Notes: generated from the sequence alone by a model not told the origin. DNA of 64,000 nt from a virus (IMGVR_UViG_3300025769_000070); one strand, 5' to 3'. Shown: positions 43,194 to 64,000, counted from the first letter of the stretch. A program made the numbers and translations.

Positions 43194-43205
43194 AATTGGT
43201 AAGGT

Positions 43206-46242: not shown

Positions 46243-46270
46243 TTGAAATCTCTCTGAGACATGGTACAAT
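46243..46270 (+). promoter_or_regulatory. sigma70-type promoter (TTGAAA-16-TACAAT)
   Basis: Hexamers with a 16-nt spacer. Confidence 0.4.
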
Positions 46271-46567
46271 TGACACAGCGGTGATCTAGTGATGACGATT
46301 ACAATATGATCACCAATGTTGGCTTGACCGCCAGTGTTTGACCGGCAACACAAAAAGTCCGTCTGAGATGTTTCCCAGTTCTTTAAGCTAGACGTTAAAC
46401 GATAGAATGTGGCGTAGAATGTTATAATAGTGTTCACCAGGTTCTGAATCTTTTACAACGTCAGAGAAAGATAAATGATCCGGCGTGTCAACGAAAGTTG
46501 TTAAATTGTTCCACTGCGGTGAGTTCAAACACGTAATCTATCAGTTTTGGTCGTTTACTGAGGTAAC

Positions 46568-46652
46568 AACTAAACGGCCACAGGGGATTTGGTGTATTTG
46601 GTAACACGCCGCTATTTAAGCGAGGCACATCGGTTCGATTCCGATTTTAGTT
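46568..46652 (+). other. tRNA-like element (class-II-like, non-canonical anticodon arm)
   Basis: Perfect 7-bp acceptor pairing AACTAAA/TTTAGTT. T-arm ATCGG-TTCGATT-CCGAT. D-arm GCCA...TGGT with GG. The anticodon arm has only a GTGT/ACAC stem with an 8-nt loop. Confidence 0.3.
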
Positions 46653-46673
46653 TGGAACGCCTGAAATTGAGAA

Positions 46674-46699
46674 GTGAGGTTCGAATCCTTACAATCCCA
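46674..46699 (+). other. tRNA 3'-half-like fragment (T-arm GGTTCGAATCC + acceptor-like tail)
   Basis: TGAGG-TTCGAAT-CCTTA then CAATCCCA. No matching 5' half at tRNA distance. Confidence 0.25.
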
Positions 46700-46718
46700 T
46701 TTGGTATCCTGATTTTGC

Positions 46719-46746
46719 TTGACTGTTCGTGTCAACGTGGTACAAT
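46719..46746 (+). promoter_or_regulatory. sigma70-type promoter (TTGACT-16-TACAAT)
   Basis: Upstream of the gene at 46811. Confidence 0.45.
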
Positions 46747-46810
46747 TCGCATATGAAAAACGTGCTCATCACAGCACTGATTTTGGGCTTCCTTTTGGAG
46801 TGGTTTAGAG

Positions 46811-47086
46811 ATGAAGATTAGCAGAGCAAAAGCGTTAAAACTTATTAAGGCTTCTAACGGGAAGACTTTTGGAGTTGGTTTCATTAAAAAGAACGGGGAG
46901 CAAAGGAATATGAATGCCCGTCTGGGTGTTAAAAAGGGAGTTATTGGTGTGGGGATGAAATACGATCCATCAGAACATGATTTGATCACCGCTTTCGATA
47001 TGAAGAAAGACGGTTTTCGTATGATCAACCTTAACACTCTTTTCAGACTTTCAACCAAAAAGAAAACTTACGAAATCGTAGATTAG
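46811..47086 (+). CDS. hypothetical basic protein
   Basis: 91-aa ORF with a GGAGTGG SD. Confidence 0.45.
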   Translation: MKISRAKALKLIKASNGKTFGVGFIKKNGEQRNMNARLGVKKGVIGVGMKYDPSEHDLITAFDMKKDGFRMINLNTLFRLSTKKKTYEIVD

Positions 47087-47091
47087 GGGGG

Positions 47092-47316
47092 ATGGTGGAA
47101 GAAGAACTTGAAGAAATCAGAGAAAGAATAAAAAGGCAGCACCTTAACTATCTATGGCAAGAAGATCACATGATGGAAATCATCATGCAAATTTGTCGAG
47201 AACAGGATGATGATCGAGAAGCTGTTAAAAATGTTATCAAGTCTACTATCTCTTTGGCATATTCGACAGGAGCCGCTGACGCCACTGAGATGACTATTGA
47301 ATTACTCAATAAATAG
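47092..47316 (+). CDS. hypothetical acidic protein
   Basis: 74-aa ORF with an AGGGGGG SD. Confidence 0.45.
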   Translation: MVEEELEEIRERIKRQHLNYLWQEDHMMEIIMQICREQDDDREAVKNVIKSTISLAYSTGAADATEMTIELLNK

Positions 47317-47328
47317 GATCAGATTGAA

Positions 47329-47362
47329 GCCTCAGATTGCATCAGTAATCTGGGGCTTTTTT
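47329..47362 (+). terminator. rho-independent terminator
   Basis: CAGATTGCATCAGTAATCTG hairpin followed by GGGGCTTTTTTG. Confidence 0.4.
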
Positions 47363-47381
47363 GTATTCATAGGGTGCAACA

Positions 47382-47411
47382 GAGCAGCCGCTGGCGGCTG
47401 CTCGTTTGTGT
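47382..47411 (+). terminator. GC hairpin family member with U-rich tail
   Basis: GAGCAGCCGCTGGCGGCTGCTC followed by GTTTGTGT. Confidence 0.45.
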
Positions 47412-47464
47412 ATCTGCCTATACGGGTGAATTCGGCTATTTTTCACTTTTTAGACTTAAGACTA

Positions 47465-47492
47465 TTGCAATCAACTGTCGATATATTATAAT
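47465..47492 (+). promoter_or_regulatory. sigma70-type promoter (TTGCAA-16-TATAAT)
   Basis: TTGCAATCAACTGTCGATATATTATAATAGGGACATGAAG. Confidence 0.5.
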
Positions 47493-47538
47493 AGGGACAT
47501 GAAGGGGAGAGAACGAAACACTAAACGGGGGAGAGAGA

Positions 47539-47724
47539 ATGAAGTTTAGAGTGACAATGAAGAATCCTGATTGTGTGTCGCAGGCTATCGACGACGCCAT
47601 TGCTGATGATCCTCATCAGGAAGACGATATCAGATCAGCTATCTCTAGGTGGTTCAAATACGAGGATTATTTGGAAGTAGAGATTGACACTTCTGTCGGA
47701 ACTTGCGTGGTGATCAAACCATGA
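47539..47724 (+). CDS. hypothetical small protein
   Basis: 61-aa ORF with a GGGGGAGAGAGA SD. Confidence 0.4.
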   Translation: MKFRVTMKNPDCVSQAIDDAIADDPHQEDDIRSAISRWFKYEDYLEVEIDTSVGTCVVIKP

Positions 47725-47888
47725 ACAATCAAAGAGCTATACTTGAACAGTTGCGGGATGCGTTAGCGATTGTGTCTGAAGCGTATATCGAATGTCCACA
47801 TTGTGTTTGTGGGCCGGTATTGCAAGCCAAACAGAGTCTTGAGGATGCTGTCCATAGACTAGAAAAAAACATTGAAAGTTCAAACTAG
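47703..47888 (+). CDS. hypothetical small protein (CxxC...CxC)
   Basis: 61-aa ORF overlapping the upstream gene by 22 nt. Confidence 0.4.
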   Translation: MRGDQTMNNQRAILEQLRDALAIVSEAYIECPHCVCGPVLQAKQSLEDAVHRLEKNIESSN

Positions 47889-47921
47889 TAAAAAGGAAGG
47901 CAGATTAACGCAAGAAAACAC

Positions 47922-47949
47922 TTGACACGGCCAGTAACTAAGTTATAAT
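47922..47949 (+). promoter_or_regulatory. sigma70-type promoter (TTGACA-16-TATAAT)
   Basis: Perfect consensus hexamers. Confidence 0.55.
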
Positions 47950-47978
47950 ACGGAAGTCAACTCACACGGGGGAAAACG

Positions 47979-48722
47979 ATGATTACATTTTCAGAAGCGA
48001 ACAGTAAACTCAAAAAATTGCAAGCCGTTACTGGTCGAACTGTTTTCAGCTTCGACCTATTGTCGGGGCACACTTGTCCCGGTGCGAAGGATTGTTTCAC
48101 CAAAGTTGTTTATGATTGGCTGACAGATACTTATTCGCTGTTCGATGGTCCTGATCAGGAGTTTCGTTGTTACGCTGCAAGCCAAGAGCAACAATATACA
48201 GGCGTTTACAATAAGCGTCTCGAAAACTGGACTATCCTGGAAAGAATGTCCAGTCCGAACATAATGGCAGCAGCTATTGAAGCTGCTATGCCTAGTCACG
48301 CGGCGACTATTCGGATTCATTCAGGCGGCGACTTCTTTAGTATGTCTTATTTCAAGGCATGGATACTTGTTGCCAAACGCAACCCGCTAAAAAGATTCTA
48401 TGCGTACACTAAGTTTCTGCCAGCATGGGTTAAATTTATGGGGATTATTCCCGCAAATTTAATTCTGACGGCATCGCGTGGTGGGCGTTATGATCATCTG
48501 ATCGACAAACACGGTCTGAGAGAAGCTAAGGTGATCTATGACGAGTCTGAGGCTAACGGTCTGGCGATTGATGTTGACGATTCTATTGCCGCCGATCCTG
48601 ATCGGAGAAATGAGGATTTCTGTCTGCTGATCCACGGACAAGGGCAAGCGGGTTCTGATCAGGCAAAGATTCACAGTGAACTAACACGGGCAAAACGAAA
48701 CGCCAAACTAATCTCTAACTAG
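47979..48722 (+). CDS. hypothetical protein (GHTCPGAKDC motif)
   Basis: 247-aa ORF with a GGGGGAAAACG SD. Confidence 0.5.
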   Translation: MITFSEANSKLKKLQAVTGRTVFSFDLLSGHTCPGAKDCFTKVVYDWLTDTYSLFDGPDQEFRCYAASQEQQYTGVYNKRLENWTILERMSSPNIMAAAIEAAMPSHAATIRIHSGGDFFSMSYFKAWILVAKRNPLKRFYAYTKFLPAWVKFMGIIPANLILTASRGGRYDHLIDKHGLREAKVIYDESEANGLAIDVDDSIAADPDRRNEDFCLLIHGQGQAGSDQAKIHSELTRAKRNAKLISN

Positions 48723-48735
48723 GGGGACCAAACCT

Positions 48736-49038
48736 GTGACTATTGAAGAACAAATTGCTGTAATGGACGCTTTCCGTAATGGGTTTTGTATTGATTCCCG
48801 CCTAAAATCCCCGCCGGGAGTTGTAAAGTCTTGCTGGTGCTGTAATGAGAGTCCGGGTTGGGATTGGGTTAACTATGAATATCGGGTTCGACCTGTGCCA
48901 AAAATTACTCGTCAAAATTTAATTGACGATATAATCACGGTGTGCCGCAATGCGGAGAATCGTATGTTAGCGGCGAACCACCGTCATGTTACTGGTAGCC
49001 AAGTTTTCTGGGATGAAGACGAATTCTCAGAAAACTAG
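48736..49038 (+). CDS. hypothetical Cys/Trp-containing protein
   Basis: 100-aa ORF. Confidence 0.45.
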   Translation: MTIEEQIAVMDAFRNGFCIDSRLKSPPGVVKSCWCCNESPGWDWVNYEYRVRPVPKITRQNLIDDIITVCRNAENRMLAANHRHVTGSQVFWDEDEFSEN

Positions 49039-49048
49039 AAGAAACGAC

Positions 49049-49076
49049 TTGCATTAGCTTTAGCTTATGCTATAAT
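49049..49076 (+). promoter_or_regulatory. sigma70-type promoter (TTGCAT-16-TATAAT)
   Basis: Hexamers with a 16-nt spacer. Confidence 0.45.
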
Positions 49077-49110
49077 TTGGAAAAGACCAGGCATGTGACC
49101 TGGCAACATT

Positions 49111-49464
49111 TTGACCGGGAACAAAGTTCCCCTTTTTGAAAAGAGGTTTGCTATGGAAGACACGACTTTTGTGGAAATGTGGATTGACACTCACGCTGAA
49201 GGTGGCACCATCAATGACATGGTTAAAAACTATCGTCAGGCGGTGCCGGAATGTACCGCGAGCGATGCAAGTCTGAAGACTGCACTCTCGACCCGAGCTA
49301 CTAAAATCAGGGCAGAACTGATTGCTCTGGGAAAAACTGAAGATGAAGTCACGAAACTCTTCCCAAAGTTCCCGCGAGCCACCAAAACCAAGCAGAATCT
49401 CCAGTCTGCTGTTGCCCGTATCCTTGAAATGGCAGGAGAAAAAGCTGAACCGGAAGGAGAATGA
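49111..49464 (+). CDS. hypothetical protein
   Basis: 117-aa ORF with an AAAGAGG SD. Confidence 0.45.
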   Translation: MTGNKVPLFEKRFAMEDTTFVEMWIDTHAEGGTINDMVKNYRQAVPECTASDASLKTALSTRATKIRAELIALGKTEDEVTKLFPKFPRATKTKQNLQSAVARILEMAGEKAEPEGE

Positions 49465-49556
49465 AAACACTCCTGATCATTGGATTTTGTGTAGGATTCA
49501 TGCTATCCTTCGTGTCTGATGAGTAGTTCAAGTGGGGGAGAAATCCCCCACTATTT

Positions 49557-49640
49557 GCGGGCGTGATGTAATTGGCAGCCATATTCCGCTTAAACCGGAA
49601 TGGGAACAATCCCGTGCAGGTTCGAATCCTGTCGCCCGTA
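49557..49640 (+). tRNA. tRNA-Leu(UAA), class II
   Basis: Acceptor GCGGGCG/CGCCCGT (G1-U72 wobble). 3-bp D stem ATG/CAT with GG in the loop. Anticodon stem TTCCG/CGGAA with loop CTTAAAC, giving anticodon UAA. Long variable arm GGGAACAATCCC. T-arm GCAGG-TTCGAAT-CCTGT. Discriminator A. Confidence 0.7.
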
Positions 49641-49692
49641 TTATAGTTGAAAACCTGGTAAAAAGACAAGGCCAAATAGGGGGAATCTTCTT

Positions 49693-49953
49693 ATGAGGAT
49701 TATTGAAGCCAGCTTATGTTTGAGATTTTACCGATCAAACGGCTGGACGCGAGAAGCCGTTCGGGAACTGTTATCCGATGATAAACGTCTGTCGCGAGTA
49801 TGTCCAAGGTATTTTGACGACCGTGACAGAGTTGGGGTAGAAGATGATCTGCCCCATGATGATTGTGATTACTTCGCAGTCTATGATTGTGGAGATCCAT
49901 TCTCAAAGGATGCAATCGCGAAACATGAACTGATACCGTTCATGCTGGGCTGA
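49693..49953 (+). CDS. hypothetical protein
   Basis: 86-aa ORF with an AGGGGGAATC SD. Confidence 0.4.
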   Translation: MRIIEASLCLRFYRSNGWTREAVRELLSDDKRLSRVCPRYFDDRDRVGVEDDLPHDDCDYFAVYDCGDPFSKDAIAKHELIPFMLG

Positions 49954-49969
49954 GGCTGATTCTTCCAAA

Positions 49970-50043
49970 GGCAAGAGGGGTTGTATTACCCCTTCTTGCC
50001 CGCTTCCGCAGCGTAGCTGCGGGTAATTGACCGTCTTTTTTCG
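49970..50043 (+). terminator. tandem hairpins + T-tract (end of GC-richer early module)
   Basis: GGCAAGAGGGG-ttgtatta-CCCCTTCTTGCC (11 bp), then CCGCAGC-gta-GCTGCGG, then TCTTTTTT. Confidence 0.5.
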
Positions 50044-50474
50044 TCGCTAGGGCACGGGATAAAATGCAAATACATGGTAATGTACCTTGCTTTAAATTAG
50101 ATTTTATATTCAATCTTTGGTTTAGTAACCAGATCTCTCTAGCTCTTAAGTATAGATTACAAACTCTTGCCCAAACTGGCATTGCAGAAGTATCTGTTAA
50201 TATAAAGAAAGCTTATATTGAATCGCCTGTATAAGCTTGCTCCCCGCCATAAGTGGCGGATTAAACACATCTTTCCTTTGCCAAGGTACGTGATTAATGA
50301 GTCGTACTAAGAATTTATACTCGCTTTTAAACCAAGTACATAAATGTGTTCCAAGAACTAACCTTCTAGCCCATTTACCCATTATTGAATTTGAGTTAAT
50401 CTTTGATCATGAGTTTATGAGTGCAAAACGCAATAACTCTTGGCAAATTTATGAAATTGTTTTAGGATTCTATA

Positions 50475-51173
50475 ATGCATCAGATTGCAGATCTCCAGAA
50501 CCGCCTAGATTCCGCTTACAAAGTTTTGACGGAAGATTTAGACAAACAGAAGTATCTGAATGAGCTACAACAGATCCAAAATGAGTTCCCTGATCTGGTA
50601 AAAAAGGAATTCCTCAGTCGTCAGGACAAACGAACATTCTTGGAATTTGGGGAATCTATAGCAGACCATATACGGGGAGAGCGGGAAATTGCCGATTTTT
50701 GGATGGGGAACTATGGGGAACAATGGTTTGGCACAAAAAGTTACCAATATAAAGGCGTGGATTCTAGGGGAAGATTAATTTGTGCTAGTTTGAAATTACG
50801 CTCAACTTTCAAAGAGCCAGATTTAGTCATAAATTCCAATACTGAAGAAGAAGAGTATGTAGAGCTAAAAACTTGCCGCGTATTATACAAAGCTACCTAT
50901 AAAGAGGCTGATATCCGCCATTATGGTAAGCTAGGCAATGTAAACATAGTGACACTCCACGCCACCGGCCAGTTCTCTCTTAATAAAGTTGGCTACTATA
51001 CACTACTCACTCCGAATGGCCTTTCTCTTTTACTAGATAAAATGGATTCAGGAGAGGTCCAAGTAGAACCTAGACCTGAATTTGGGGGCAGAAAATGCAT
51101 CAATTTCACGAGAGAACAGCTTAAAAACCACTTCTACGTTGAAGATATCGACCTAAAAAATGTGCAAATATAA
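50475..51173 (+). CDS. hypothetical protein
   Basis: 232-aa ORF. Confidence 0.45.
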   Translation: MHQIADLQNRLDSAYKVLTEDLDKQKYLNELQQIQNEFPDLVKKEFLSRQDKRTFLEFGESIADHIRGEREIADFWMGNYGEQWFGTKSYQYKGVDSRGRLICASLKLRSTFKEPDLVINSNTEEEEYVELKTCRVLYKATYKEADIRHYGKLGNVNIVTLHATGQFSLNKVGYYTLLTPNGLSLLLDKMDSGEVQVEPRPEFGGRKCINFTREQLKNHFYVEDIDLKNVQI

Positions 51174-51350
51174 ACAAATCGGCTTTTTAGCAATCTTGAT
51201 ACTCCACTGGCGGCAGATTTTATGAATGAAACTGCCCGTCTTTTGTAAGTTATTGGTACTAAAGGACTTAGAAAATGGGTCTTTTTGTGCCAATTTTTGA
51301 AAAAGTGGCGAGCCAGATGCTAATTTGAACAAATATGGAGCATACATCAC

Positions 51351-51378
51351 TTGACAAGAGTCATTCTTGTGGTATAAT
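51351..51378 (+). promoter_or_regulatory. sigma70-type promoter (TTGACA-16-TATAAT) preceding ~380-nt untranslated region
   Basis: Perfect hexamers; the next start codon is at 51763. Confidence 0.5.
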
Positions 51379-51762
51379 GGTCCTAGTTGTCATCGACAGG
51401 CAGATAACTGGTCTATGAGCGGAGTGTATGAGTTGAACACATAAAAAGACGTATCTGGTAGAATCTTGTAGGATTTTAACAGGTTCAGGTGTATTAGTAG
51501 TGTAATACACTAAGCGTGTTGTGTGGTGACCTGGTTCAAAAAATCCCCCATTTCCCACACTCTCTACCACTCTCTCTCTTCTATTACTCTATGTATATAG
51601 TATATTAGTTTAGTTTGTTTGTTTTTTATTTTAAGGGTAATTTTTATAAGTTGTGTTGTTTTTTGTAAATACGCCTCGAAAAAAATAGAAAGCAAGAAGA
51701 AAAATTTAACATTCTATTTATTAACGCGGTTATTTTATACACAAATACCATAGGATCAAGCA

Positions 51763-52143
51763 ATGAACGAAGAAATACAAAATAAGCTGTTAGGTTACCT
51801 ATCAAAGGTTGAAAATAGTATTAATGATGTGGTGGACTTTGGGTCTGACCAAGTGCCGCTTTTAGTCCAAGAAATCTTAATTTATACGGGGATAGAAGCT
51901 GCACTATATGCCACGCTCCAGATCATCTCTTCCTTATTTTTCTTGTATATAGGGAAGAAAATGTCTTTAGCTATAAAAGAAGTAATTAACGATGAACAAC
52001 ATTATATCCCCATAGTATTTTCACTGATGATATCTACACCATTTTTATGTTCTGCTCTAGAAAACATACTAATAGTCTTAAAGGTGTATTTTGCCCCTCG
52101 TATATTTCTGTTGGAATATATTCGGGAGATTATCAGAAATTAG
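51763..52143 (+). CDS. small membrane protein (2 TM helices; holin-like size)
   Basis: Hydrophobic segments IYTGIEAALYATLQIISSLFFLYI and IPIVFSLMISTPFLCSALENILIVL. Confidence 0.4.
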   Translation: MNEEIQNKLLGYLSKVENSINDVVDFGSDQVPLLVQEILIYTGIEAALYATLQIISSLFFLYIGKKMSLAIKEVINDEQHYIPIVFSLMISTPFLCSALENILIVLKVYFAPRIFLLEYIREIIRN

Positions 52144-52254
52144 CCAAAGTATACAATAGGAAATTTAACCCCGAAAATTTAGTAATTTAGAACCCTCCAG
52201 TCATTCATTTGGTTGGGGGTTTTCTTTTATCCTTTTAAAAAGAGAAGGCCCAAA

Positions 52255-53469
52255 ATGCAGAAACTTCAAACAATGGTAGATAATCTTAAAGCAACGAGTT
52301 CTCGTAATAATAAGATACAAATTCTTAAAGACAATCCTTGGTCTAAAGATATTCTCTTTCGTATATACAACCCGGATATTCTTTATGGGGTAAAATCGGG
52401 AAAATGCCGGAAATTATCACACCTAAAAGGTCTCCATTCTAATGACCTTTATCATTTACTAGACCAATTGATTAAACACAGTGGTCATGATTGTGTAAGG
52501 CTTGTTAATCAGTTTGTTCTGGACAACCCTAATTATGAAGAATTGATTTATAATGTCGTGGACAAGTCTTTAAAATGTAGGATTGATGATACAGTTATTA
52601 ATTCCGCATTCCCTGGACTTATTCCTACGTTTAATGTCGCTTTAGCTGAACAATATGATAAATACTCTGATAGAGTCAAACCCGACTGGCTTTGGTCAAG
52701 AAAATTAGACGGGGTACGTCTGATAGCGACCAAGAGAGGCTCAGACGTAACTTATCAATCCAGAGAGGGTAAGTACTTCACAACGCTAGACGCCCTCACA
52801 GAGCAGATTAGAGGTATTGAGGGCGACTTTGTCCTGGATGGTGAAATTTGTGTGATGAAAGACGGTAATGAGGATTTTTCTGGTATTGTGGGGGCTGTTA
52901 AAAGAAAAGGCCATACAATTGAAAATCCTAAATTCTTCGTATTCGACATCTTGACTATTGAAGAGTTCGAATCGCGGGAATCCACGTCTGTACTGAAAGA
53001 AAGGCTTGCCAGACTGGAATTTTCCGGTAAAATTGAGAAATTAGAACAGAGGGAGATTGGAGATGGGGGATTATTTGATTACCCCGATACTTGGGAAGGT
53101 TTGATTCTTAGGGCGAATGTTCCCTATGAAGGCAAGCGTACCTCAAATATGCTCAAGGTAAAGAAATTTCAAGACGATGAATATGTCGTGGAATCTTTAG
53201 AAATTGGAGACTTTCAGATCGTAGAAGACGGTCGGGAAAAAATTATTGAGACTGTAACCAATGTCTCCTTTTCTCATAAGGGTGAGAAGGTAAGTGCCGG
53301 ATCTGGATTTAGCCTTGACCAAAGAAAAGAATATTATGCCGATCATAGTAAGATTATCGGTAAAGTTGTAACAATCAAACACTTTGGAGAGAGCAAAGAT
53401 AAAAACGGTAAAATCTCTTTAAGGTTTCCTACTATTAAAATAGTACATGGTGATCATCGTAAAATCTAA
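52255..53469 (+). CDS. ATP-dependent DNA ligase
   Basis: Motif I KLDGVR, motif III LDGEICV, motif IV EGLILRAN, motif V LKVKKF. ORF 52213-53469; start MQKLQT with an AGAGAAGG SD. Confidence 0.85.
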   Translation: MQKLQTMVDNLKATSSRNNKIQILKDNPWSKDILFRIYNPDILYGVKSGKCRKLSHLKGLHSNDLYHLLDQLIKHSGHDCVRLVNQFVLDNPNYEELIYNVVDKSLKCRIDDTVINSAFPGLIPTFNVALAEQYDKYSDRVKPDWLWSRKLDGVRLIATKRGSDVTYQSREGKYFTTLDALTEQIRGIEGDFVLDGEICVMKDGNEDFSGIVGAVKRKGHTIENPKFFVFDILTIEEFESRESTSVLKERLARLEFSGKIEKLEQREIGDGGLFDYPDTWEGLILRANVPYEGKRTSNMLKVKKFQDDEYVVESLEIGDFQIVEDGREKIIETVTNVSFSHKGEKVSAGSGFSLDQRKEYYADHSKIIGKVVTIKHFGESKDKNGKISLRFPTIKIVHGDHRKI

Positions 53470-53475
53470 TCAATT

Positions 53476-53967
53476 ATGATAAATAAATTTAGACACATTC
53501 AATACACTGATGATGGATGCGATGAATATCAGTGTTTAAGCTGCTATGGAAAGTTAGAAATCCGGTATATCAATAATTGGAAATTCTGCCCAATGTGTGG
53601 TATCGAGTTTTCAGGTGAATTAGAGTGTAGGGAACATAACACGCCGTCGTGGCTGTACAAGCTTGATCTGGATTACCATGATCAGTATGAGCTTAAGAAA
53701 AAGCTCTGGAAAACTAAGAAGTCAGGATGGGTAATTGAATATAGGGATATTTGGTTTAATAAGTCAGATAGCGGAGAAATTTTATATAGACACGATCATT
53801 TTGCTTCAACTAATTGGGCTGTCTATAGAGATAATAGGTCTATAAATATTACAGCTATTGAAATTTTTAAACATCTTAAAGATTTAAGGTTTCAGAGTCG
53901 AATAGACTATAATATTTTAGATTATGGTCTTATTACTGAATATAGAGGAAGATATGTCTCGAATTGA
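53476..53967 (+). CDS. zinc-ribbon-containing hypothetical protein
   Basis: CxxC...CxxC near the N-terminus. 163 aa. Confidence 0.45.
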   Translation: MINKFRHIQYTDDGCDEYQCLSCYGKLEIRYINNWKFCPMCGIEFSGELECREHNTPSWLYKLDLDYHDQYELKKKLWKTKKSGWVIEYRDIWFNKSDSGEILYRHDHFASTNWAVYRDNRSINITAIEIFKHLKDLRFQSRIDYNILDYGLITEYRGRYVSN

Positions 53968-54095
53968 ATTAGACTTATTTATTAGTGGTCTAGAATATTC
54001 CTTTTGGATTCAATGTTTAATGTTTAATGATGAATTCATCGTGTTTGTCCCCAGATATATTACTGATTTAGAAAGTGTAGTTAGTAGGTGTTATA

Positions 54096-54359
54096 ATGAG
54101 TAATTTTGTATTCTCTAGTATGCTACACTCGCAGTTAAACTCGCAGTTACACTGGCATTTATACTCAGAGTTAGACTCGCAGTTACACTCGCAGTTAAGC
54201 TCACAGTCACACTGGCAGTTATACTCGCAGTCACACTGGCAGTTATACTCGCAGTTAAGCTCGCAGTTACGCTCGCGGTTACACTCGAAGTTAATCTCGC
54301 AGTTAGGCTCGCAGTTATACTGGCAGTTAGACTCGCGGTTGGAGAGAGATAGTGAATAG
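54096..54359 (+). CDS. lead mini-ORF of array A (MSNFVFSSMLH + (SQLx)n ...QLERDSE), coding status uncertain
   Basis: Real ATG with an AGGTG SD and a unique N-terminus. Downstream blocks re-start at GTG inside the punctuation with a GGAGAG SD. Punctuation carries stops in two plus-strand frames. Confidence 0.3.
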   Translation: MSNFVFSSMLHSQLNSQLHWHLYSELDSQLHSQLSSQSHWQLYSQSHWQLYSQLSSQLRSRLHSKLISQLGSQLYWQLDSRLERDSE

Positions 54360-55793
54360 ATCGCAGTTACACTTGCAGTTAAACTTGCAGTTACGCTCAC
54401 AGTCAAACTATCAGTTACGCTCGCAGTTAAACTCGCAGTTACACTTGCAGTTAAACTTGCAGTTACGCTCACAGTCAAACTATCAGTTACGCTCGCAGTT
54501 AAACTCGCAGTTATACTCGCAGTTAAACTCGCAGTTATACTCGCAGCTAAACTCGCAGTTATACTGGCAGTTATACTCGCAGTTACGCTCACAGTTGGAG
54601 AAAGATAGTGAATAGATCCCAGTTACACTCGCAGTTAATCTCGAAGTTAGGCTCGCAGTTATCCGGGGTGTTATACTCGCAGTTATACTCGCAGTTACGC
54701 TCGCGGTTACACTCGAAGTTAATCTCGCAGTTAGGCTCGCAGTTATACTGGCAGTTAGACTCGCGGTTGGAGAGAGATAGTGAATAGATCGCAGTTACAC
54801 TTGCAGTTAAACTTGCAGTTACGCTCACAGTCAAACTATCAGTTACGCTCGCAGTTAAACTCGCAGTTACACTTGCAGTTACACTTGGAGTTACACTGGC
54901 AGTTAGACTCGCAGTTATACTCGCAGTTATACTTGCAGTCAAACTTACAGTTACGCTTGCAGTTAGACTCGCAGTTACGCTCACAGTTGGAGAGATAGTG
55001 AATAACTTACAGTTAGACTCACAGTTACGCTCGCAGTTAAACTCGCAGTTACACTTGCAGTTACACTTGGAGTTACACTGGCAGTTAGACTCGCAGTTAT
55101 ACTCGCAGTTATACTTGCAGTCAAACTTACAGTTACGCTTGCAGTTAGACTATCAGTTACACTCCCAGTTAGAGAAAGATAGTGAATCCCAGTTGGAGAG
55201 AGATAGTGAATAGCTCGCAGTTATCCGGGGTGTTATACTCGCAGTTATACTCGCAGTTACACTCGGACTTACGATCACAGTTACAATTTCGGTTAGACTC
55301 GCAGTTATACTGGCAGTCATACTCACAGTTAGAATCGCAGTTATACTCACAGTTGGAGAGAGATAGTGAATAGATCGCAGTTAATCTCGCAGTTACTCTC
55401 GCAGTTATACTGGCAGTTATGCTCGCAGTTAGGCTCGCAGTTATACTGGCAGTTAGACTCGCAGTTACGCTCGCAGTTACGCTCACAGTTAGGCTCGCAG
55501 TTATACTGGCAGTTAGTCTTGCAGTCAAGCTCGCAGTTAGACTCGCAGTTACGCTCACAGTTGGAGAGATAGTGAATAACTTACAGTTAGACTCGCAGTT
55601 ATACTCGCATTTAAGCTCGCAGTTACACTCGCAGTTACACTCGCAGTTAAACTCACAGTTACGCTCGCAGTTAGACTCTCAGTTATACTTTCAGTTATAC
55701 TCGCAGTTATACTCACATTTAGACTCTCCGTTATACTGGCAGTCATTATCGCAGTTATACTGGCAGTTGGAGAGAGATAGTGAAGTGTATTAC
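54121..55793. repeat. array A: ~125 tandem 12-bp units (consensus ACTCGCAGTTAN) in 8 blocks separated by 25-bp punctuation GTTGGAGAGAGATAGTGAATAGATC
   Basis: Read directly. Punctuation copies sit at 54341, 54594, 54766, 54986 (short variant ...GAGATAGTGAATAACTTAC), 55168/55192 (tandem), 55352, 55562 (short variant) and 55766. Higher-order 72-bp and roughly 200-bp duplications. The variable positions within the 12-mer are 1, 4, 5, 10 and 12. Confidence 0.9.
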
Positions 55794-55910
55794 TGGCAAT
55801 ATCCCGATCAGCCGTAAAAATGGAAATTACCACTTGACGCCACCTCAGAGCTTGGTATGATGTGACCTGTTGAGAGCCAACAAAGCTATAACAAGTAGAG
55901 AGTAGATAAA

Positions 55911-56105
55911 ATGATACACAATGCATATAAAAGTGCATTCCTGGAAATAATTAGAAGATACAATATGGTGTATAAAGACACGATGAATGCTGAAGACATA
56001 TATAATGTCAAAAGATTAATTTCTTCAGGTATCGGTTTTTGGGAATCTGGAGAAAAAGGCCGAAAATACTATCTTTTTCCTTGCACGCCGCCGATAACCA
56101 AGTAA
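55911..56105 (+). CDS. hypothetical small protein
   Basis: 64-aa ORF. Confidence 0.4.
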   Translation: MIHNAYKSAFLEIIRRYNMVYKDTMNAEDIYNVKRLISSGIGFWESGEKGRKYYLFPCTPPITK

Positions 56106-56121
56106 AATGGGAGCATAAGAC

Positions 56122-56445
56122 ATGACATGCGAAATCAAATCTAAACCCGAATGTGAAGTAAAATCTTCAAAAAAGTCTGGTAAAGAGGTAAGGCTCTATA
56201 CTGATGAAGCTTTACTAAGACTGACGGGAACTGTCAAAAATCACCTGAAAACTGATGTGATCAATCTTTTTGACAATCGTTACCGTATTAATGTCTGGAC
56301 TGAAGAACGAAGATCAGACAGACTTATCAGTCACTTTCAGATACCAAAAAGTTTTTTCGCTTCTCTTGAAGATGGGGAATTTATTGACAGAACTATTCAA
56401 CCAAAACCAAAACCTGTTGGGAAAATTAATCTGTTCTCTGAATAA
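56122..56445 (+). CDS. hypothetical protein
   Basis: 107-aa ORF with a GGGAGCATAAGAC SD. Confidence 0.45.
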   Translation: MTCEIKSKPECEVKSSKKSGKEVRLYTDEALLRLTGTVKNHLKTDVINLFDNRYRINVWTEERRSDRLISHFQIPKSFFASLEDGEFIDRTIQPKPKPVGKINLFSE

Positions 56446-56493
56446 CCAAACATTGACGTTTAACTACTTTTATTTACTTTTGAACTGAGGATT

Positions 56494-57330
56494 TTGAATA
56501 TGGCTAAAGCTAAAAAGCAATCTTTTACCCCAGAAGAAGAAGCTCTTATTCCGGAATTCTTCGAAAAGTATCTTAAACAACAGACGGAACAAGCGTCTCT
56601 TGAAGATATTACGAAGGCTGTGAATACAATCTGGGCGGACATGGGGCAACCGCCGCCAGAAATTAAGGTGATGGACTCTCCTATCGCCTGTAAGAAAGAT
56701 TGCCCAAATCTTAAAGATTTTGCTTCTCCTTATTGGAGTATTTGGTTTAACTCATACGCAGCAATGTATGATTTTGCCAACACTATTGGTCTTGAAATGG
56801 ACCAAGAGAAACTTGAGAAATTTCTTTTATGGACTCGTTGCTGCCCCTTTATCCTTTTCAAGGATGATTTTGTTTACGTAAGTCGTAAACCTATCAAACT
56901 TGGATTCAATGATGCGGGACAGCTTCATTGTGACGATGGACCGGCTTGTCTCTATGCGGATGGATGGTCAATCTGGTCTCTGAACGGTGTAGCCGTTACA
57001 GAGCAAATCGTAATGAGACCAGAAACTTTGACTCTCGAACAGATAAAGAACGAAGAAAACGAAGAAGTTAAGCGTTTGATGATCGAGCGTTATGGTTTCG
57101 AACTATACCTTGCACAAGTTAATGCGGAATTGATTGATCGTCGAACAAACGATATTGAAGGAACTAGAGAGCTTCTGTATAAAGCAGACGGTATGCAGTT
57201 CCTACTGTGCATCTGTCCAAGCACTGCTAAAGAATTCTGCCTGGAAGTAGAAAACGGAATTAAAACATGTGCAGAGGCACAAAAATATCTGTCTAGTGGA
57301 TTATCAGACAGAATCATTAGTGCTTCTTAA
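56494..57330 (+). CDS. hypothetical protein (Cys-rich central region)
   Basis: 278-aa ORF with a GAGGATTTTGAAT SD. Confidence 0.5.
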   Translation: MNMAKAKKQSFTPEEEALIPEFFEKYLKQQTEQASLEDITKAVNTIWADMGQPPPEIKVMDSPIACKKDCPNLKDFASPYWSIWFNSYAAMYDFANTIGLEMDQEKLEKFLLWTRCCPFILFKDDFVYVSRKPIKLGFNDAGQLHCDDGPACLYADGWSIWSLNGVAVTEQIVMRPETLTLEQIKNEENEEVKRLMIERYGFELYLAQVNAELIDRRTNDIEGTRELLYKADGMQFLLCICPSTAKEFCLEVENGIKTCAEAQKYLSSGLSDRIISAS

Positions 57331-57369
57331 ATACGGAAATTCAAAAAAGCCAATTCGACAAAAATAAAC

Positions 57370-57397
57370 TTGACTCCGGCCTCAGACCGGATATAAT
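57370..57397 (+). promoter_or_regulatory. sigma70-type promoter (TTGACT-16-TATAAT)
   Basis: Precedes the GAGGAG SD of the gene at 57433. Confidence 0.5.
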
Positions 57398-57432
57398 CTG
57401 ACTGTAACGTTACTACTTTTTCTTTTGAGGAG

Positions 57433-57855
57433 ATGAAGATGGCTGTTGAAAGTTTTCAAGAAAATCTGGCTGAACTGCGTTCTTCTGTAGAAGGGCTGAA
57501 CGCCGCAAAAACCGAGCGAATTAGTGCTCCTTCATTGGGAGATGTCGTTCGCCAGGGAGACATCTACTTGGTATGCCTTAATGCTCTACCATCAGGCAAG
57601 CCGACAAAGGACACTCAGCTTGCCCCTGGCAACACTCAGGGTAGCCGACATATCCTTGTCGGAGACGCTACAATCGTTAAGGAAGTTACCTTCCGAGACA
57701 TTAATAGCGTACTCACTGGACCTGCTTTTAAGTGCAACAGTGACGTTGAAGTCACGCACCCAGAGCATGGAAACCGGATTCTGCCGGAAGGCACTATCTG
57801 GCAAGTTGTTTATCAACTTTCCCACAGTGAAGAAGTTAAGCGTGTGCAAGACTAG
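57433..57855 (+). CDS. hypothetical protein
   Basis: 140-aa ORF with a strong GAGGAG SD. Confidence 0.5.
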   Translation: MKMAVESFQENLAELRSSVEGLNAAKTERISAPSLGDVVRQGDIYLVCLNALPSGKPTKDTQLAPGNTQGSRHILVGDATIVKEVTFRDINSVLTGPAFKCNSDVEVTHPEHGNRILPEGTIWQVVYQLSHSEEVKRVQD

Positions 57856-57924
57856 ACTTAGTTAAAAGGGTCTTACAAGGGGTTGGAGTCACATCCAGCC
57901 CCTTATTTTTTGGATAAATGAATT

Positions 57925-58155
57925 ATGAAAATTAAAAAATTGGATAATAAACTGATTCTTAGAGATTATAAAGAAAAATTGTATTATGTCTTGAACTCTT
58001 TGGATAGTCAGTTGTATAAAGATGTTAATACCAGTTTTTTTTATTTTCCTTATCTTACAAAATATTATAATTCAGAACAGGTGTCACTAAATAGAATAGC
58101 CCATGATATGAACGATATGGTGCGTGATCAGTTCTGGAGTGATTGTAATGAATAA
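57925..58155 (+). CDS. hypothetical protein
   Basis: 76-aa ORF; its stop overlaps the start of the array B lead ORF. Confidence 0.4.
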   Translation: MKIKKLDNKLILRDYKEKLYYVLNSLDSQLYKDVNTSFFYFPYLTKYYNSEQVSLNRIAHDMNDMVRDQFWSDCNE

Positions 58156-58315
58156 TTTCCAGTTCAACCATCATTTATATTCGGATTTAGACTCGCAATT
58201 GTCATTGCAGTTATACCCTCATTTACAACACAAGTTATACTGGATGTTACGTTCTCAAATACGTTCGCAGTTACACTCGCAGTTAGAATCGCAGTTGGAG
58301 AAAGATAGTGAATAG
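58124..58315 (+). CDS. lead mini-ORF of array B (MNNFQFNHH + tetrapeptide repeats ...QLEKDSE), coding status uncertain
   Basis: ATG start overlapping the upstream stop. N-terminus similar to the array A lead ORF (M-x-N-F-x-F). Confidence 0.3.
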   Translation: MISSGVIVMNNFQFNHHLYSDLDSQLSLQLYPHLQHKLYWMLRSQIRSQLHSQLESQLEKDSE

Positions 58316-58545
58316 ATCGCAGTTACACTTGCAGTTATACTCGCAGTTAAACGATCATTTTTACTCGCAGTTACGCTCGCAGTTAAACTCGCAGTTATAC
58401 TTACAGTTACACTCGCAGTTACACTCGCAGTTATACTGGCGGTTACACTCCCAGTTGGAGAGAGATAGTGAATAGCTCGCAGTTACACTTGCAATTATTC
58501 TCGCAGTTAAGCTCGCGGTTATACTGGCAGTTGAACTCTCAGTGC
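58175..58545. repeat. array B: second copy of the 12-bp repeat/punctuation architecture (~30 units, 2 punctuation motifs, degenerate 5' block)
   Basis: Punctuation at 58294 (GTTGGAGAAAGATAGTGAATAGATC) and 58454 (GTTGGAGAGAGATAGTGAATAGCTC). The 12-mers are ACTCGCAGTTAN. Confidence 0.85.
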
Positions 58546-58667
58546 TTATTCCCTTTATACAAGGAGTTATTATCACAATTATCCACTCAGACTCAAACAT
58601 ACTCAGATTTGAATGAATGGAATGATAAATATTAATAAAAGGGTGTATAATTATCAGGAGGTGTATT

Positions 58668-58925
58668 ATGCACGAAATGCCAAAAGTAACCAACTCGACA
58701 CTAGACTCTACTCTAGCAACATTACGGCATGAAGAAGAATATAGTAGAAAAACTATACATGATTTAAAAGAGAATAATCCTGTCCTCTATTCTTTACTAG
58801 AAATAATTGTTAGCTCTGATAAAGACCCCGAATATATCAAAGGATTTTTATTAGGAGCTACTCAATTTTATACATTAATATCACGTCAAATTGTTTCCGA
58901 TGAATTTGAAAGGACTTGGGGATGA
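58668..58925 (+). CDS. hypothetical protein
   Basis: 85-aa ORF with a CAGGAGGTG SD. Confidence 0.5.
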   Translation: MHEMPKVTNSTLDSTLATLRHEEEYSRKTIHDLKENNPVLYSLLEIIVSSDKDPEYIKGFLLGATQFYTLISRQIVSDEFERTWG

Positions 58926-59101
58926 AAAAAACATCAATATTTAGTTTTTATAATGCTATAGATCTTCCTACTGAACAGAAGTGGGCGGTGTATTCCCTAC
59001 TCCGTAATAATATTGCAGGAGAACCTTTTAAAGGAATAGAGGATAGACTTGATATTCAACTAGAATCTATTTTACAAAGAAAATATAGAGATGTTAATTG
59101 A
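58916..59101 (+). CDS. hypothetical small protein
   Basis: 61-aa ORF overlapping the upstream gene by 10 nt. Confidence 0.4.
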   Translation: MGMKKTSIFSFYNAIDLPTEQKWAVYSLLRNNIAGEPFKGIEDRLDIQLESILQRKYRDVN

Positions 59102-61637: not shown

Positions 61638-62609
61638 TTATACATATTGATTAATTATTCTAGATCCATATGGATCGACGCTAAAGTCAATAAAGTTTTT
61701 CCTGTATTTTTGTTTAAAATCGTTCTTATTTTTAGAACTATCAATTAATCCAAATATAAACCCGCTACCACCGCTACCAATTAACTTGCCCCCAATCATC
61801 CCCTCATCTTGCAGACGGTTATACATCTGGTCAATTTCATAATTACTTACAATGTTTGATATCTTTTTCTTTTCCAGCCAAGAGTTATGTAATAAACGAG
61901 CAATACAATCAATGTCAGAGTTTAAAAAATAATCATATGCTTTGTGTGCAAACTCTTTAATGCGATGCTTGGATTCAATATTATCAGAATTTTTGTGAGA
62001 CTCAGCAATATTAAATGATTTTCTTGACCTGCCCGTATAAATAAGAATTGCCCTATTAAAGAATTCCCTCTGAAACTCTTCACTAATGGGCATTGGTTTA
62101 ACTTTAAAATCATTATCTGCAATATGTATAGAGTTAAATCCTCCGTAACTAGCCCATATTTGGTCTTGTATCCCCCCAGCCTCACCTAATAGGTCTCGCT
62201 CTATATAAATAGCCTCTTTAGCAAGCCTCTTATTACTTATAGAATCTCCAGAAAGTCTATAAAATGAATTTAGTAGACCAACTATAAAAGATGAAGAAGA
62301 CCCAATGCCTGTTTGCGAGGGAAGATCTGATAGGTGAACAATCTCTACTCCTTCACGCACATTAAGGAAGTCTAAGACCCCACGAACACCATTATGTTTT
62401 ATTTCTTCGTTATTATCAACTATCTCTGTCTTAGCATAACAAATCTTAGTTTTATAATCAAGAATTCCTGGAGTCATTCTAACATTAGTATAACAATACT
62501 TGTCTATAGTAAAACCTATAAGCAATGACCCATATCGATTGTAGTAATTTTCATAATCAGTAGAACCACCAAACATAGAGATTCTAAACGGTGTTTGAGA
62601 TATAATCAT
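61638..62609 (-). CDS. GHMP-family sugar kinase (heptose-7-P/galacto-kinase-like)
   Basis: LPSQTGIGSSSSFIVGLLNSF matches the GHMP PxxSGLGSSAA motif. The C-terminal GGKLIGSGGSGF motif is also present. Confidence 0.75.
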   Translation of the reverse strand: MIISQTPFRISMFGGSTDYENYYNRYGSLLIGFTIDKYCYTNVRMTPGILDYKTKICYAKTEIVDNNEEIKHNGVRGVLDFLNVREGVEIVHLSDLPSQTGIGSSSSFIVGLLNSFYRLSGDSISNKRLAKEAIYIERDLLGEAGGIQDQIWASYGGFNSIHIADNDFKVKPMPISEEFQREFFNRAILIYTGRSRKSFNIAESHKNSDNIESKHRIKEFAHKAYDYFLNSDIDCIARLLHNSWLEKKKISNIVSNYEIDQMYNRLQDEGMIGGKLIGSGGSGFIFGLIDSSKNKNDFKQKYRKNFIDFSVDPYGSRIINQYV

Positions 62610-63121: not shown

Positions 63122-64000
63122 TTAATAATTCCTGCATCTTTCTGCATCGTTAGGAGACATTAAGTCATAGAATCTAGACATTTCGGCAATTCCGTATTCT
63201 AATGTATAGTTTGGTCTATATCCTAAATTATAAAGTTTACCACTAGACACATTATAATCACGTTTGTCAGGATCAGTCCTATCTGTAACAACAGAGTAGG
63301 TAGCACCAAGTTCTTTACAGACTAATTTGACTAATTCCATTTTAGTAGTATTTAGATTGTCATTACCTAAATTATAGACCTGTCCTTTCATATACCTTTG
63401 TTCTTCAATAGCAAAGTCAAACCCTCTTACAATATCCTTGACGTGTATATAGTTACGTCTAAATTGAGGATCAAAGACAGTAATATTTCCTTCTTCTTGT
63501 GCTACTTTTACTAAATTATTCACCAACAGATCTGTACGCGGTCTATAAGACCATCCGAATACAGTGGCTAATCTAAAACATACTGTATTTCGATATCCGC
63601 TAATAAGCGTATCTTCTGCCGCCTGTTTTGTCCTAGCATATAAAGAAAGAGGGTTTGATGGAGTTTCTTCTGTACATATTTCCTCTCCAGTAGAACCATA
63701 GCCAGAATTAGTGTTAGGGTATATAACTAACTGATTATTCAAATAAGGAATTAGTTCAGAAAACCAATCCTGATTTAAAGCTTTTGTAACGTATTGATAC
63801 TTATCGCATAGTGGTGCTCCAACTAAAGCCGCTAATGGAATAATTACATCGGATGTCTTAATATGATGTATTAAGTTATCAGACCAATTAGTAACATCTT
63901 CTATATAAAGTTTGCCACCTTTATCACAAAAAACACTACTTACTAATGTCCCCTGATCATACCATAGATTATCAAATCCTACAACTTCATTACCCATAGA
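63122..64000 (-). CDS. NAD-dependent sugar epimerase/dehydratase (extended SDR), 5' end beyond window
   Basis: Catalytic LYARTKQAAE (YxxxK). Typical epimerase C-terminal region. The ORF runs off the window edge. Confidence 0.7.
   Translation of the reverse strand, partial: SMGNEVVGFDNLWYDQGTLVSSVFCDKGGKLYIEDVTNWSDNLIHHIKTSDVIIPLAALVGAPLCDKYQYVTKALNQDWFSELIPYLNNQLVIYPNTNSGYGSTGEEICTEETPSNPLSLYARTKQAAEDTLISGYRNTVCFRLATVFGWSYRPRTDLLVNNLVKVAQEEGNITVFDPQFRRNYIHVKDIVRGFDFAIEEQRYMKGQVYNLGNDNLNTTKMELVKLVCKELGATYSVVTDRTDPDKRDYNVSSGKLYNLGYRPNYTLEYGIAEMSRFYDLMSPNDAERCRNY

Follow-up and report, generated by a model that had tools for sequence, protein, structure and literature searches.

The DNA that was analyzed, called the window below, is a stretch of 64,000 nucleotides of the viral sequence IMGVR_UViG_3300025769_000070. 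It represents a tailed phage with genes for a terminase-like protein, tail-fibre-like proteins, a virion structural protein and sugar-nucleotide enzymes. The window contains two arrays of a 12-nucleotide unit, CAGTTAnnCTCG, in which blocks of units are split by a punctuation sequence of 26–28 nucleotides. Array A spans positions 54096–55817 and comprises eight open reading frames (ORFs), and array B spans positions 58148–58635 and comprises three. The comparison with related sequences led to the conclusion that both arrays are probably chains of translationally coupled mini-genes, which would encode peptides with a four-residue repeat, x1-Q-L-x2 (abbreviated SQLx).

Organization of the repeat arrays

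Tandem Repeats Finder reported a 12-bp array at positions 54124–55768 with 135 copies (consensus TACACTCGCAGT) and a second 12-bp array at positions 58265–58538, which belongs to array B. A parse in nucleotide register yielded 118 clean units of the type CAGTTAnnCTCG in array A and 22 in array B; depending on the parse, the unit count of array A is about 120–135. There are 140 distinct unit sequences. The variable unit positions are 5, 8 and 11, and position 11 takes C, G or T, while position 12 takes G, A or T. The register parse left only three other kinds of material in the arrays: the 24-nucleotide N-terminal leader, a small number of variant units, and the punctuation. The latter has the form CAGTTGGAGA(GA)GATAGTGAATA(GATCG/ACTTA). 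Its core, GATAGTGAA, is present nine times in array A (at positions 54348, 54604, 54776, 54994, 55178, 55202, 55362, 55568 and 55776) and twice in array B (58304 and 58464), and it was not found on the opposite strand of the window. The sequence GATAGTGAATAG contains stop codons in two frames and a start codon in the third. A 300-nucleotide segment is repeated at 91% identity, revealing recent block duplicates. Two independent contigs with 99.9% identity, L084 (window positions 49389–54382) and L077 (window positions 55029–58959), confirmed both ends of array A and the whole of array B.

The arrays consist of predicted overlapping mini-genes

On the plus strand the unit is translated to x1-Q-L-x2, with S, W, L or Y as x1 and, at the hypervariable x2, residues such as Y, H, R, N and D. 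According to the per-position entropy, the codons for Q, L and x hardly vary at their third positions within the arrays. The predicted mini-genes and the lead ORFs in front of them are as follows.

53954–54103, plus strand: lead ORF of array A (MSRIELD...SRCYNE*), its TAA overlaps the ATG of A1 (ATGAGTAA); kept in L080 from MSRIELD
54096–54359, plus strand: A1, 87 amino acids, ATG start, N-terminus MSNFVFSSMLH followed by SQLx repeats, ends with ERDSE-TAG; one nucleotide different in L084
54352–54615, plus strand: A2, 87 amino acids, GTG start, 8-nucleotide overlap with A1
54608–54787, plus strand: A3, 59 amino acids, GTG start, 8-nucleotide overlap
54780–54998, plus strand: A4, 72 amino acids, GTG start, ends with SQLER-TAG at a 26-nucleotide punctuation variant
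54998–55213, plus strand: A5, 71 amino acids, GTG start, 1-nucleotide overlap (TAGTG), reads through a half punctuation that lacks a stop codon (EKDSESQLERDSE)
55206–55373, plus strand: A6, 55 amino acids from the GTG at 55206, or 63 amino acids from an in-frame GTG at 55182
55366–55572, plus strand: A7, 68 amino acids, GTG start, ends with SQLER-TAG at a 26-nucleotide punctuation
55572–55817, plus strand: A8, 81 amino acids, GTG start, 1-nucleotide overlap, unique tail EVYYWQYPDQP-TAA (ERDSEVYYWQYPDQP-TAA), which is conserved in L080 and L076
57925–58155, plus strand: lead ORF of array B, 76 amino acids, its TAA overlaps the ATG of B1 (ATGAATAA)
58148–58315, plus strand: B1, 55 amino acids, ATG start, N-terminus MNNFQFNHHLY
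58308–58475, plus strand: B2, 55 amino acids, GTG start, 8-nucleotide overlap
58468–58635, plus strand: B3, 55 amino acids, GTG start, unique tail ...CLFPLYKELLSQLSTQTQTYSDLNEWNDKY-TAA, which is nearly identical in L076 and L083

The ORFs listed for the window encode 55–87 amino acids, and for the copies overall a range of 27–87 was given. Tetrapeptide repeats make up nearly all of each protein and are framed by a short head that the copies share, M-N-[RSN]-S, and by an acidic tail, E-[RK]-D-S-E; the heads of the mini-ORFs comprise 3–11 residues and the tails 5–30. Neighboring ORFs overlap by 8 nucleotides (GTGAATAG; NTGNNTAG) or, at the two 26-nucleotide punctuations, by 1 nucleotide (TAGTG). 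The GTG restarts in the window are preceded by a GGAG motif 5–7 nucleotides upstream. Digestion of the mini-proteins with trypsin would be predicted to release peptides such as SQLNSQLYSQLNSQLYSQLNSQLYWQLYSQLR. The lead ORF of array B (57925–58155) contains an LDSQLY motif. In comparison with its counterpart in L076 it has 10 nonsynonymous and 3 synonymous codon differences, and by this comparison it appears to be either fast-evolving or not constrained.

The original prediction, made from this sequence alone, had already proposed a tandem array of mini-proteins. Its start of array A, the Shine-Dalgarno motif in front of the restarts, and the ATG starts of the first ORFs with their unique, related N-termini were verified. 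This is also true for the overlap of the start of array B with the upstream stop codon, and array A turned out to be linked to its lead ORF in the same way. Other details had to be revised. Array A had been thought to end at 55586 and extends to the end of A8, and the proposed length range of 63–87 amino acids does not include the shortest ORFs. The proposed ending SQLE(K/R)DSE-TAG applies to most of the mini-genes; the exceptions are the two with SQLER-TAG and the last one of array A. The restart had been placed 4 nucleotides before the stop codon, which does not agree with the overlaps of 8 nucleotides or 1 nucleotide.

The SQLx frame and the start/stop junctions are preserved

When four consensus units were translated in six frames, SQLx alone remained invariant, and in the other frames residues were changed or stop codons were gained. 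The avoidance of stop codons was quantified with 274 in-register units from four non-redundant loci (arrays A and B of the window, L080, L076 and L070), which were compared with 2000 column-preserving shuffles. In the SQLx frame not a single stop codon was observed, while 21.8 +/- 2.7 were expected, and none of the 2000 shuffles yielded such a low number. The stop counts in the other five frames matched the expectation. At the position of the serine codon TAT is present and TAG or TAA never occurs, and TGG was found 53 times and TGA never. The stop avoidance is not an artefact of the choice of ORFs, because the ORFs tile the arrays without gaps and the parse that used only the register was also free of stops.

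Further evidence was obtained from lineages that encode the same peptide with other codons. The phages L066 and L065, with a DUF6745 protein (see below) that is 67% identical, have a lone mini-ORF of 48 or 40 amino acids, respectively (MNNSQLHSRLYSQL...; MNNSQLHSRLYSQLDYQL...), which uses the codons TCT-CAG-CTA-NAC. It is situated at the site of array B, after a 141-amino-acid gene and a terminator. In L096 (85% identical) a mini-ORF of 56 amino acids (MVNQLYSQLHLQL...) with the codons TCA-CAG-CTA-NAC is located between the ligase gene and the next gene. In the same way, the DUF6745 gene of L091 uses TCG-CAG-CTT, and those of L099–L101 use TCA-CAG-CTA.

The junctions between the mini-genes were compared across five arrays (n = 22). 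An 8-nucleotide overlap is present at 19 junctions, a 1-nucleotide overlap at two, and a gap of 13 nucleotides at one. All restart codons are GTG with the exception of one ATG, and 19 of the 22 have a GGAG not more than 18 nucleotides upstream. The punctuations of 26 and 28 nucleotides shift the frame differently, yet both stop the incoming frame and start the outgoing frame. The architecture is also kept in variant junctions, namely ATGAATGA and ...TTATGAATGA in L076, where the start is ATG and the stop is TGA, and GGAGATAAAAAGTGAATAA in L080. In prokaryotes start/stop spacings of -8, -4 and -1 nucleotides have been found to be enriched among coupled gene pairs (PMC12548453). The arrays share with such pairs the co-directional ORFs, the spacings of -8 and -1, and the Shine-Dalgarno motif within the upstream coding sequence. 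In contrast, the usual coupled pairs join two different genes, whereas the arrays iterate the junction up to seven times between paralogous mini-genes.

The restart GTGAATAACTTACAGTTA of the window aligns with the true ATG start of the lone mini-gene of L066 (ATGAATAACTCTCAGCTA). Because of this homology, the punctuation can be understood as the tail-to-head junction of duplicated mini-genes. In addition, the arrays are always located on the coding strand, and they are coupled to an upstream gene in four contexts, i.e., array A, array B, L070 and L096.

Taken together, the proposed plus-strand S-Q-L-x frame was upheld, as it is stop-free and is kept in DUF6745 genes as well as in lineages with synonymous codons. 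The original prediction had also stated that coding and non-coding cannot be distinguished from the sequence. This is correct for this single sequence, but it no longer applies once relatives are compared: when constraint was examined across the frames, as had been suggested, stop avoidance was confined to the SQLx frame. The evidence for selection consists of frame preservation and stop avoidance, not of a low ratio of nonsynonymous to synonymous changes (dN/dS). A dN/dS analysis of the orthologous unique heads and tails was uninformative, with nearly identical tails and mostly nonsynonymous differences in the repeats.

Turnover and mobility of the arrays

The arrays differ considerably between phages with similar surroundings. 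The flanks in L080, L086 and L076 are 91–98% identical to the window, while the arrays align at only about 75%. Array A has seven blocks in L080 versus eight in the window, array B has six blocks in L076 versus three in the window, and the unit number also differs between L065 and L066. The relative L063, which has the same gene order and a DUF6745 protein with 82% identity, is devoid of an array at either site, and a promoter follows directly after the lead ORF.

In contrast to these relatives, L070 has a phage backbone with only 25–31% protein identity to the window, and nevertheless it contains an array of the same design and with the same unit (70–81% DNA identity). There the array is start/stop-coupled (ATGAATAG) to an unrelated upstream gene of 209 amino acids. 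L070, L075 and L078 all carry this diverged array of three blocks, with one GATAGTGAA junction and one GGTAGTGAA variant. These sequence comparisons indicate that the arrays are a dispensable and horizontally mobile cassette, which seems to evolve by duplication of units and blocks and to diversify at defined residues on a fixed Q-L scaffold.

The repeat is related to an internal module of DUF6745 proteins

Viral and metagenomic contigs were searched for exact matches to two adjacent 12-nucleotide units. The unit CAGTTAnnCTCG was found to be read as SQLx in genes, complete or truncated, that are composed of an N-domain, repeats and a DUF6745 domain, namely in L062 (358 amino acids), L071 (409 amino acids), L073, L082 and L074. 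Among 99 DUF6745 homologues that were retrieved, 17 contain a segment with tetrapeptide periodicity, in all cases at a single insertion site. Their repeats are of the types SQV[WER], [DA]SV[RGW], [DG]QL[RWGQ], NNV[WGE], [DA]NL[RG], xAAT, xSAT and xAV[DRH]. The family design thus comprises one semi-variable residue, two fixed residues (Q/S/N/A and L/V/T) and one hypervariable residue, and the arrays of the window conform to it. The tetrapeptide design is kept in entirely different sequences, and other repeats of the family vary as NGG. The repeat number differs between near-identical proteins, e.g., P0077 versus P0079, P0090 versus P0091, and the paralogues of L100. The latter contig (IMG/VR 2199034002_000002) encodes two tandem full-length N-domain/SQLx/DUF6745 paralogues on the minus strand (94–3054), with about 25 and 55 units, and therefore repeat-bearing genes duplicate too. 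A DUF6745 gene with the unit CTCGCAGTTAnnCTCGCAGTTA is present at positions 5886–6958 of L088, a contig of a Planctomycetales metagenome-assembled genome (CAYXSY010000029.1), which may hint at a prophage or a host.

The repeat-bearing DUF6745 proteins and the arrays share the SQLx peptide, in many cases together with an identical coding unit of 12 nucleotides and an identical reading frame (L062, L071, L073, L082), and the kinship of the arrays with the repeat module is regarded as established. The difference is that the mini-ORFs lack both the N-terminal domain and the DUF6745 domain, and no Pfam or PHROG match was found for them. The window itself encodes a DUF6745 protein (56500–57330), which has no repeats. 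A local search of the window with a hidden Markov model derived from A1 had a single match, at positions 56464–57327.

Several searches yielded few or no matches. The region had no match in 50,697 genomes of cultured phages (megablast and blastn). A search of a set of 5.8 billion proteins with A1 retrieved only seven truncated fragments with the N-domain and SQLx repeats. In IMG/VR, 15 nucleotides of the punctuation had no more than single chance matches, and a pattern search for the DUF6745 gene as a single protein in the same database gave nothing. PADLOC and NCBIfam returned only low-complexity noise, and the literature searches for DUF6745 and for tandem arrays of small genes found nothing directly relevant.

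Predicted structure of the mini-proteins

The mini-proteins are composed of 23% leucine, 18% serine, 18% glutamine and 7% tyrosine. AlphaFold2 predicted a helix-turn-helix hairpin for A1 from the single sequence, with a predicted local distance difference test (pLDDT) score of 81. According to this model, the peptides are probably alpha-helical hairpins with a leucine/glutamine core and the variable x residues as a ridge on the surface. The suggestion in the original prediction that they are prion-like or form condensates is not favoured, given the leucine content and the helical model, whereas such domains are rich in Q, N, S, G and Y, poor in aliphatic residues and disordered. An analogy to the tetrapeptide-repeat module of phage proteins like Tweety gp54 (see below) has a better basis. 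The model of the DUF6745 protein of the window had a pLDDT of 91. The repeat insertion point of its relatives maps to a loop between helices, near residues 70–81 of the window protein, and by these models the loop would fit a protruding hairpin.

Comparison with known repeat-containing phage genes

The closest characterized analogue is gene product 54 (gp54) of mycobacteriophage Tweety. Its 12-bp unit has invariant third codon positions, and the variation at the first and second positions has been read as selection for variation (PMC2884959). Che8 gp57 and PMC gp51 belong to the same group as Tweety gp54, and among close relatives copy numbers of 48, 26 and 15 were found; the gene is non-essential and absent from phage Llij (PMC2884959). 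Changes of the repeat number of gp54 tune the counter-defence against the (p)ppGpp-synthetase system gp29/gp30 of Phrann (PMC9262239). The arrays share with gp54 the 12-bp unit, the codon-position pattern, the variation of the copy number and the absence in a close relative. In contrast, gp54 is one protein of 374 amino acids with unique N- and C-terminal regions on both sides of AAxx repeats, whereas the arrays would encode free-standing SQLx peptides without flanking domains by up to eight coupled genes. By this analogy, the arrays may work like gp54, but they are not to be seen as members of its family.

A second system is the VR2 region of bbp36 in the Bordetella phages BMP-1 and BPP-1, an in-frame tandem repeat with 9–20 copies in a non-essential gene, which has been cited as an analogue of the Tweety gene (PMC2884959). 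Compared by description, it differs from the arrays by a 24-bp unit within one gene, by the absence of stop/restart punctuation and by its unrelated sequence. The NNC codon at the x position had been a lead to a target of a diversity-generating retroelement. This candidate was rejected, as the variable positions are not adenine-specific, and a change from AAC to NNC would have been expected. A scan of ORFs, which was not exhaustive, did not reveal a reverse transcriptase.

Evaluation of alternative explanations

At the level of sequence comparison, the coding frame, the gene boundaries, the origin by tandem duplication, the turnover and the mobility can be regarded as established. From these we infer that the mini-genes are actually translated and that their translation is coupled. 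Several observations weigh against this mini-gene reading or against parts of it. The middle of array A (54383–55028) is backed by the assembly of this window alone, and the block order there could reflect the assembly, because the independent contigs break inside the array. Many blocks are recent duplicates, and within a single array the punctuation is therefore conserved in part by descent. The identical 12-nucleotide unit in distant phages means that descent, transfer and concerted evolution also act at the nucleotide level. Codons of the array are rare in the window's own genes (TCG accounts for 5.5% of the serine codons, CGC for 5% of the arginine codons, NAC for about 26%). Orthologous blocks differ mostly by nonsynonymous changes at x positions, which is not ordinary purifying selection. 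The absence of the arrays from the close relative L063 is compatible with little or no function. None of 10 mini-proteins was present in an exact look-up in 15 billion predicted proteins, and therefore gene callers do not call the mini-genes. Concerning structure and family, the hairpin of A1 is a single-sequence model of moderate confidence, and for DUF6745 a sequence search of the PDB retrieved nothing and Foldseek found no match with E < 1e-3, so that no solved or annotated relative was obtained. The possibility that gp54 is a homologue of DUF6745 or of the mini-ORFs was considered and rejected: gp54 contains no Pfam domain, and hhalign with the DUF6745 profile gave a probability of 0.25%.

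Several of these points would be accounted for if the arrays were translated incidentally or not at all, being a selfish or neutral expansion of a DUF6745-type or mini-gene cassette, whose open frame would reflect recent descent from coding DNA. The array-free L063, the fast shifts in block number and the segmental duplications fit well to such an expansion, as do the rare codons, the mostly nonsynonymous differences and the failure of gene callers to call the ORFs. However, 140 distinct units without a stop, when about 22 were expected, are difficult to reconcile with neutrality, and the start/stop overlaps were kept through changed junctions, including one in which GTG was replaced by ATG and TAG by TGA. 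Lone mini-ORFs persist in distant relatives with other synonymous codons, and the cassette was retained after it had moved to an unrelated phage. We therefore consider a neutral expansion to be improbable.

The repeat could also act as DNA or RNA, i.e., as an array of binding sites (of the iteron, centromere or packaging type), as a sponge RNA or as a recombination hotspot, with coding being secondary. The 12-nucleotide unit is indeed identical in distant phages and genes, including synonymous positions, the Q, L and x codons are almost constant at their third positions, and the codons are rare in the phage. Tweety gp54, however, has invariant third positions too, in a repeat that is proven to be coding (PMC2884959). 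In other lineages the same peptide is written with different nucleotides (TCT/TCA, CTA/CTT), the tetrapeptide design recurs in DUF6745 relatives whose sequences are entirely different, and the avoidance of stops is specific for the SQLx frame. Folding z-scores of +1.41 (plus strand) and +0.67 (minus strand) gave no sign of excess structure, and Rfam had no match in the arrays, the best match (E = 0.51) lying outside of them. In addition, the arrays are always co-oriented and start/stop-coupled with their neighbors. A role of this kind is thus very improbable.

Alternatively, each array might encode one polyprotein, with a programmed frameshift or hop at every punctuation, similar to prfB. A Shine-Dalgarno-like GGAG in front of a stop codon superficially resembles the +1 frameshift site of release factor 2, and at every junction GGAG is situated 5–7 nucleotides 5′ of an in-frame stop. 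Against this, the 28- and the 26-nucleotide punctuations would need unlike shifts (+1 versus -1/+2), both of them contain a start codon in the outgoing frame, and no slippery codon precedes the stop. The junction start matches the real ATG of lone mini-genes, one junction has ATG and TGA, and another one has the gap of 13 nucleotides. Such a polyprotein is hardly credible.

Next to no weight can be given to coding by the minus strand, which would yield Cys-rich proteins with (V/I/L)TAS and NCEx repeats: ORFs of 127–174 amino acids with 4-nucleotide overlaps do exist there, and the variable unit positions 5, 8 and 11 are third codon positions of the VTAS frame, but the CNCE frame contains 34 stops versus 35.7 by chance, each ORF fuses two frames across the punctuation, in the other codon lineages the minus frames are altered (VTAS to VAES, VAVS or EAAS) or acquire stops, the neighboring genes, promoter-like sites and terminator are all on the plus strand, and no family member uses the frame. 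The original prediction had likewise seen no evidence for translation of this strand.

Genomic neighborhood

The arrays are located in a plus-strand block of early-type genes. The DUF6745 gene of the window is situated between them; it lies 0.7 kb after array A, and the first mini-gene of array B follows 0.8 kb further downstream. The following features surround the arrays.

52213–53469: gene for an ATP-dependent DNA ligase
55834–55861, plus strand: promoter-like site (TTGACG-16-TATGAT with TG), directly after array A, serving the downstream genes
56500–57330, plus strand: DUF6745-family gene (Pfam PF20530, E = 8.6e-20) without repeat module
57433–57855, plus strand: gene of 140 amino acids, which follows the DUF6745 gene in every relative examined
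57877–57904: strong intrinsic terminator between the 140-amino-acid gene and the lead ORF of array B

The DUF6745 gene and the subsequent gene of 138–143 amino acids form a conserved two-gene module (56500–57855 in the window; also in L063, L066 and L092–L095). In L062 a gene of 119 amino acids, which is similar by eye, is found at the corresponding position. A Cys-rich, zinc-ribbon-like gene of 163 amino acids (53476–53967) is located between the ligase gene and the lead ORF of array A. It is cut to a stub of 9 codons (MLNKFRHVQ*) in L080 (5920–5960) and in L086, with flanks that are 97–98% identical.

The sole tRNA gene of the window encodes tRNA-Leu(UAA) (49556–49641), which reads TTA, a triplet that is present once per 12-nucleotide unit. 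It was considered as support for the translation of the arrays and was dropped; the gene is also present in L080, L084 and L065, and it is not array-specific, because L065 has it together with a mini-ORF that uses CTA.

Elsewhere in the window, a 536-amino-acid ORF among the virion genes (21914–23524) matches homing/HNH endonucleases (phrog_3339, E = 1.7e-70). An ORF of 1027 amino acids (28633–31716) has ambiguous PHROG matches, to the terminase large subunit and to DnaC-like/primase proteins, over one P-loop region. Sugar-nucleotide genes are present at 33630–34718, 61638–62609 and 63122–63997 (GDP-mannose 4,6-dehydratase, GHMP kinase, epimerase), and L065 and L066 also contain genes for GHMP kinase, epimerase/dehydratase-type and further sugar-nucleotide enzymes. 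Tandem repeats of 51 bp (18649–18772, in a tail-fibre-like ORF) and 60 bp (21009–21200) are both located in large ORFs on the minus strand. At about 36000–50000 the G+C content rises from about 36% to 42–47%, and the GC skew changes its sign at about 36 kb, at the switch from minus- to plus-strand genes.

Proposed mechanism and significance

According to the mini-gene reading, arrays A and B would go back to a small protein-coding gene that was duplicated in tandem. The punctuation would be the junction of two copies, consisting of the tail and stop codon of one copy, the embedded GGAG, and the GTG of the next copy 8 nucleotides (or 1 nucleotide) before the stop. The mini-genes would be transcribed into a single plus-strand mRNA, shared with the neighboring early genes, and coupling by termination and reinitiation would then lead to a set of related, but non-identical microproteins. 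The putative source of the repeat is the module that many DUF6745 proteins contain in a loop connecting the N-terminal with the C-terminal part. In this phage the module would be free-standing, because its own DUF6745 protein is devoid of it.

Concerning the function, it is tempting to speculate, in analogy to the systems described above, that the arrays could be a fast-evolving accessory locus that provides a variable protein-binding surface in a phage-host or phage-phage conflict, and that amplification would raise the dose as well as the number of variants. By the same analogy, a counter-defence-like role of the arrays, taken alone, can be proposed tentatively. A more detailed scheme, which must be called doubtful, is that the arrays are a co-expressed library of helical-hairpin microproteins, a detached DUF6745 "stalk", that acts as a tunable counter-defence or decoy set. 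The variants, differing in length and in the x ridge, might bind or jam different alleles of host or prophage sensors, or they might complement the repeat-less DUF6745 protein in trans, and tandem amplification together with recombination of units would generate the repertoire.

Tetrapeptide-repeat phage proteins were already known; new is the occurrence of the tetrapeptide-repeat module as free-standing, chained microprotein genes. To our knowledge, no tetrapeptide-repeat phage protein other than Tweety gp54 has a known role. The mini-genes are a blind spot of annotation and an example of the microprotein "dark matter" of phages, i.e., of repeat-built genes that are discarded by pipelines. 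The chain of up to eight paralogous genes with 8-nucleotide stop/start overlaps could serve as a model for termination-reinitiation. The locus links Tweety gp54 and the DUF6745 family, which is widespread in phages and bacteria and about one-sixth of whose retrieved members contain a hypervariable tetrapeptide module. The occurrence of the repeat module in isolation is a natural experiment on the repeats, apart from any role as a domain spacer.

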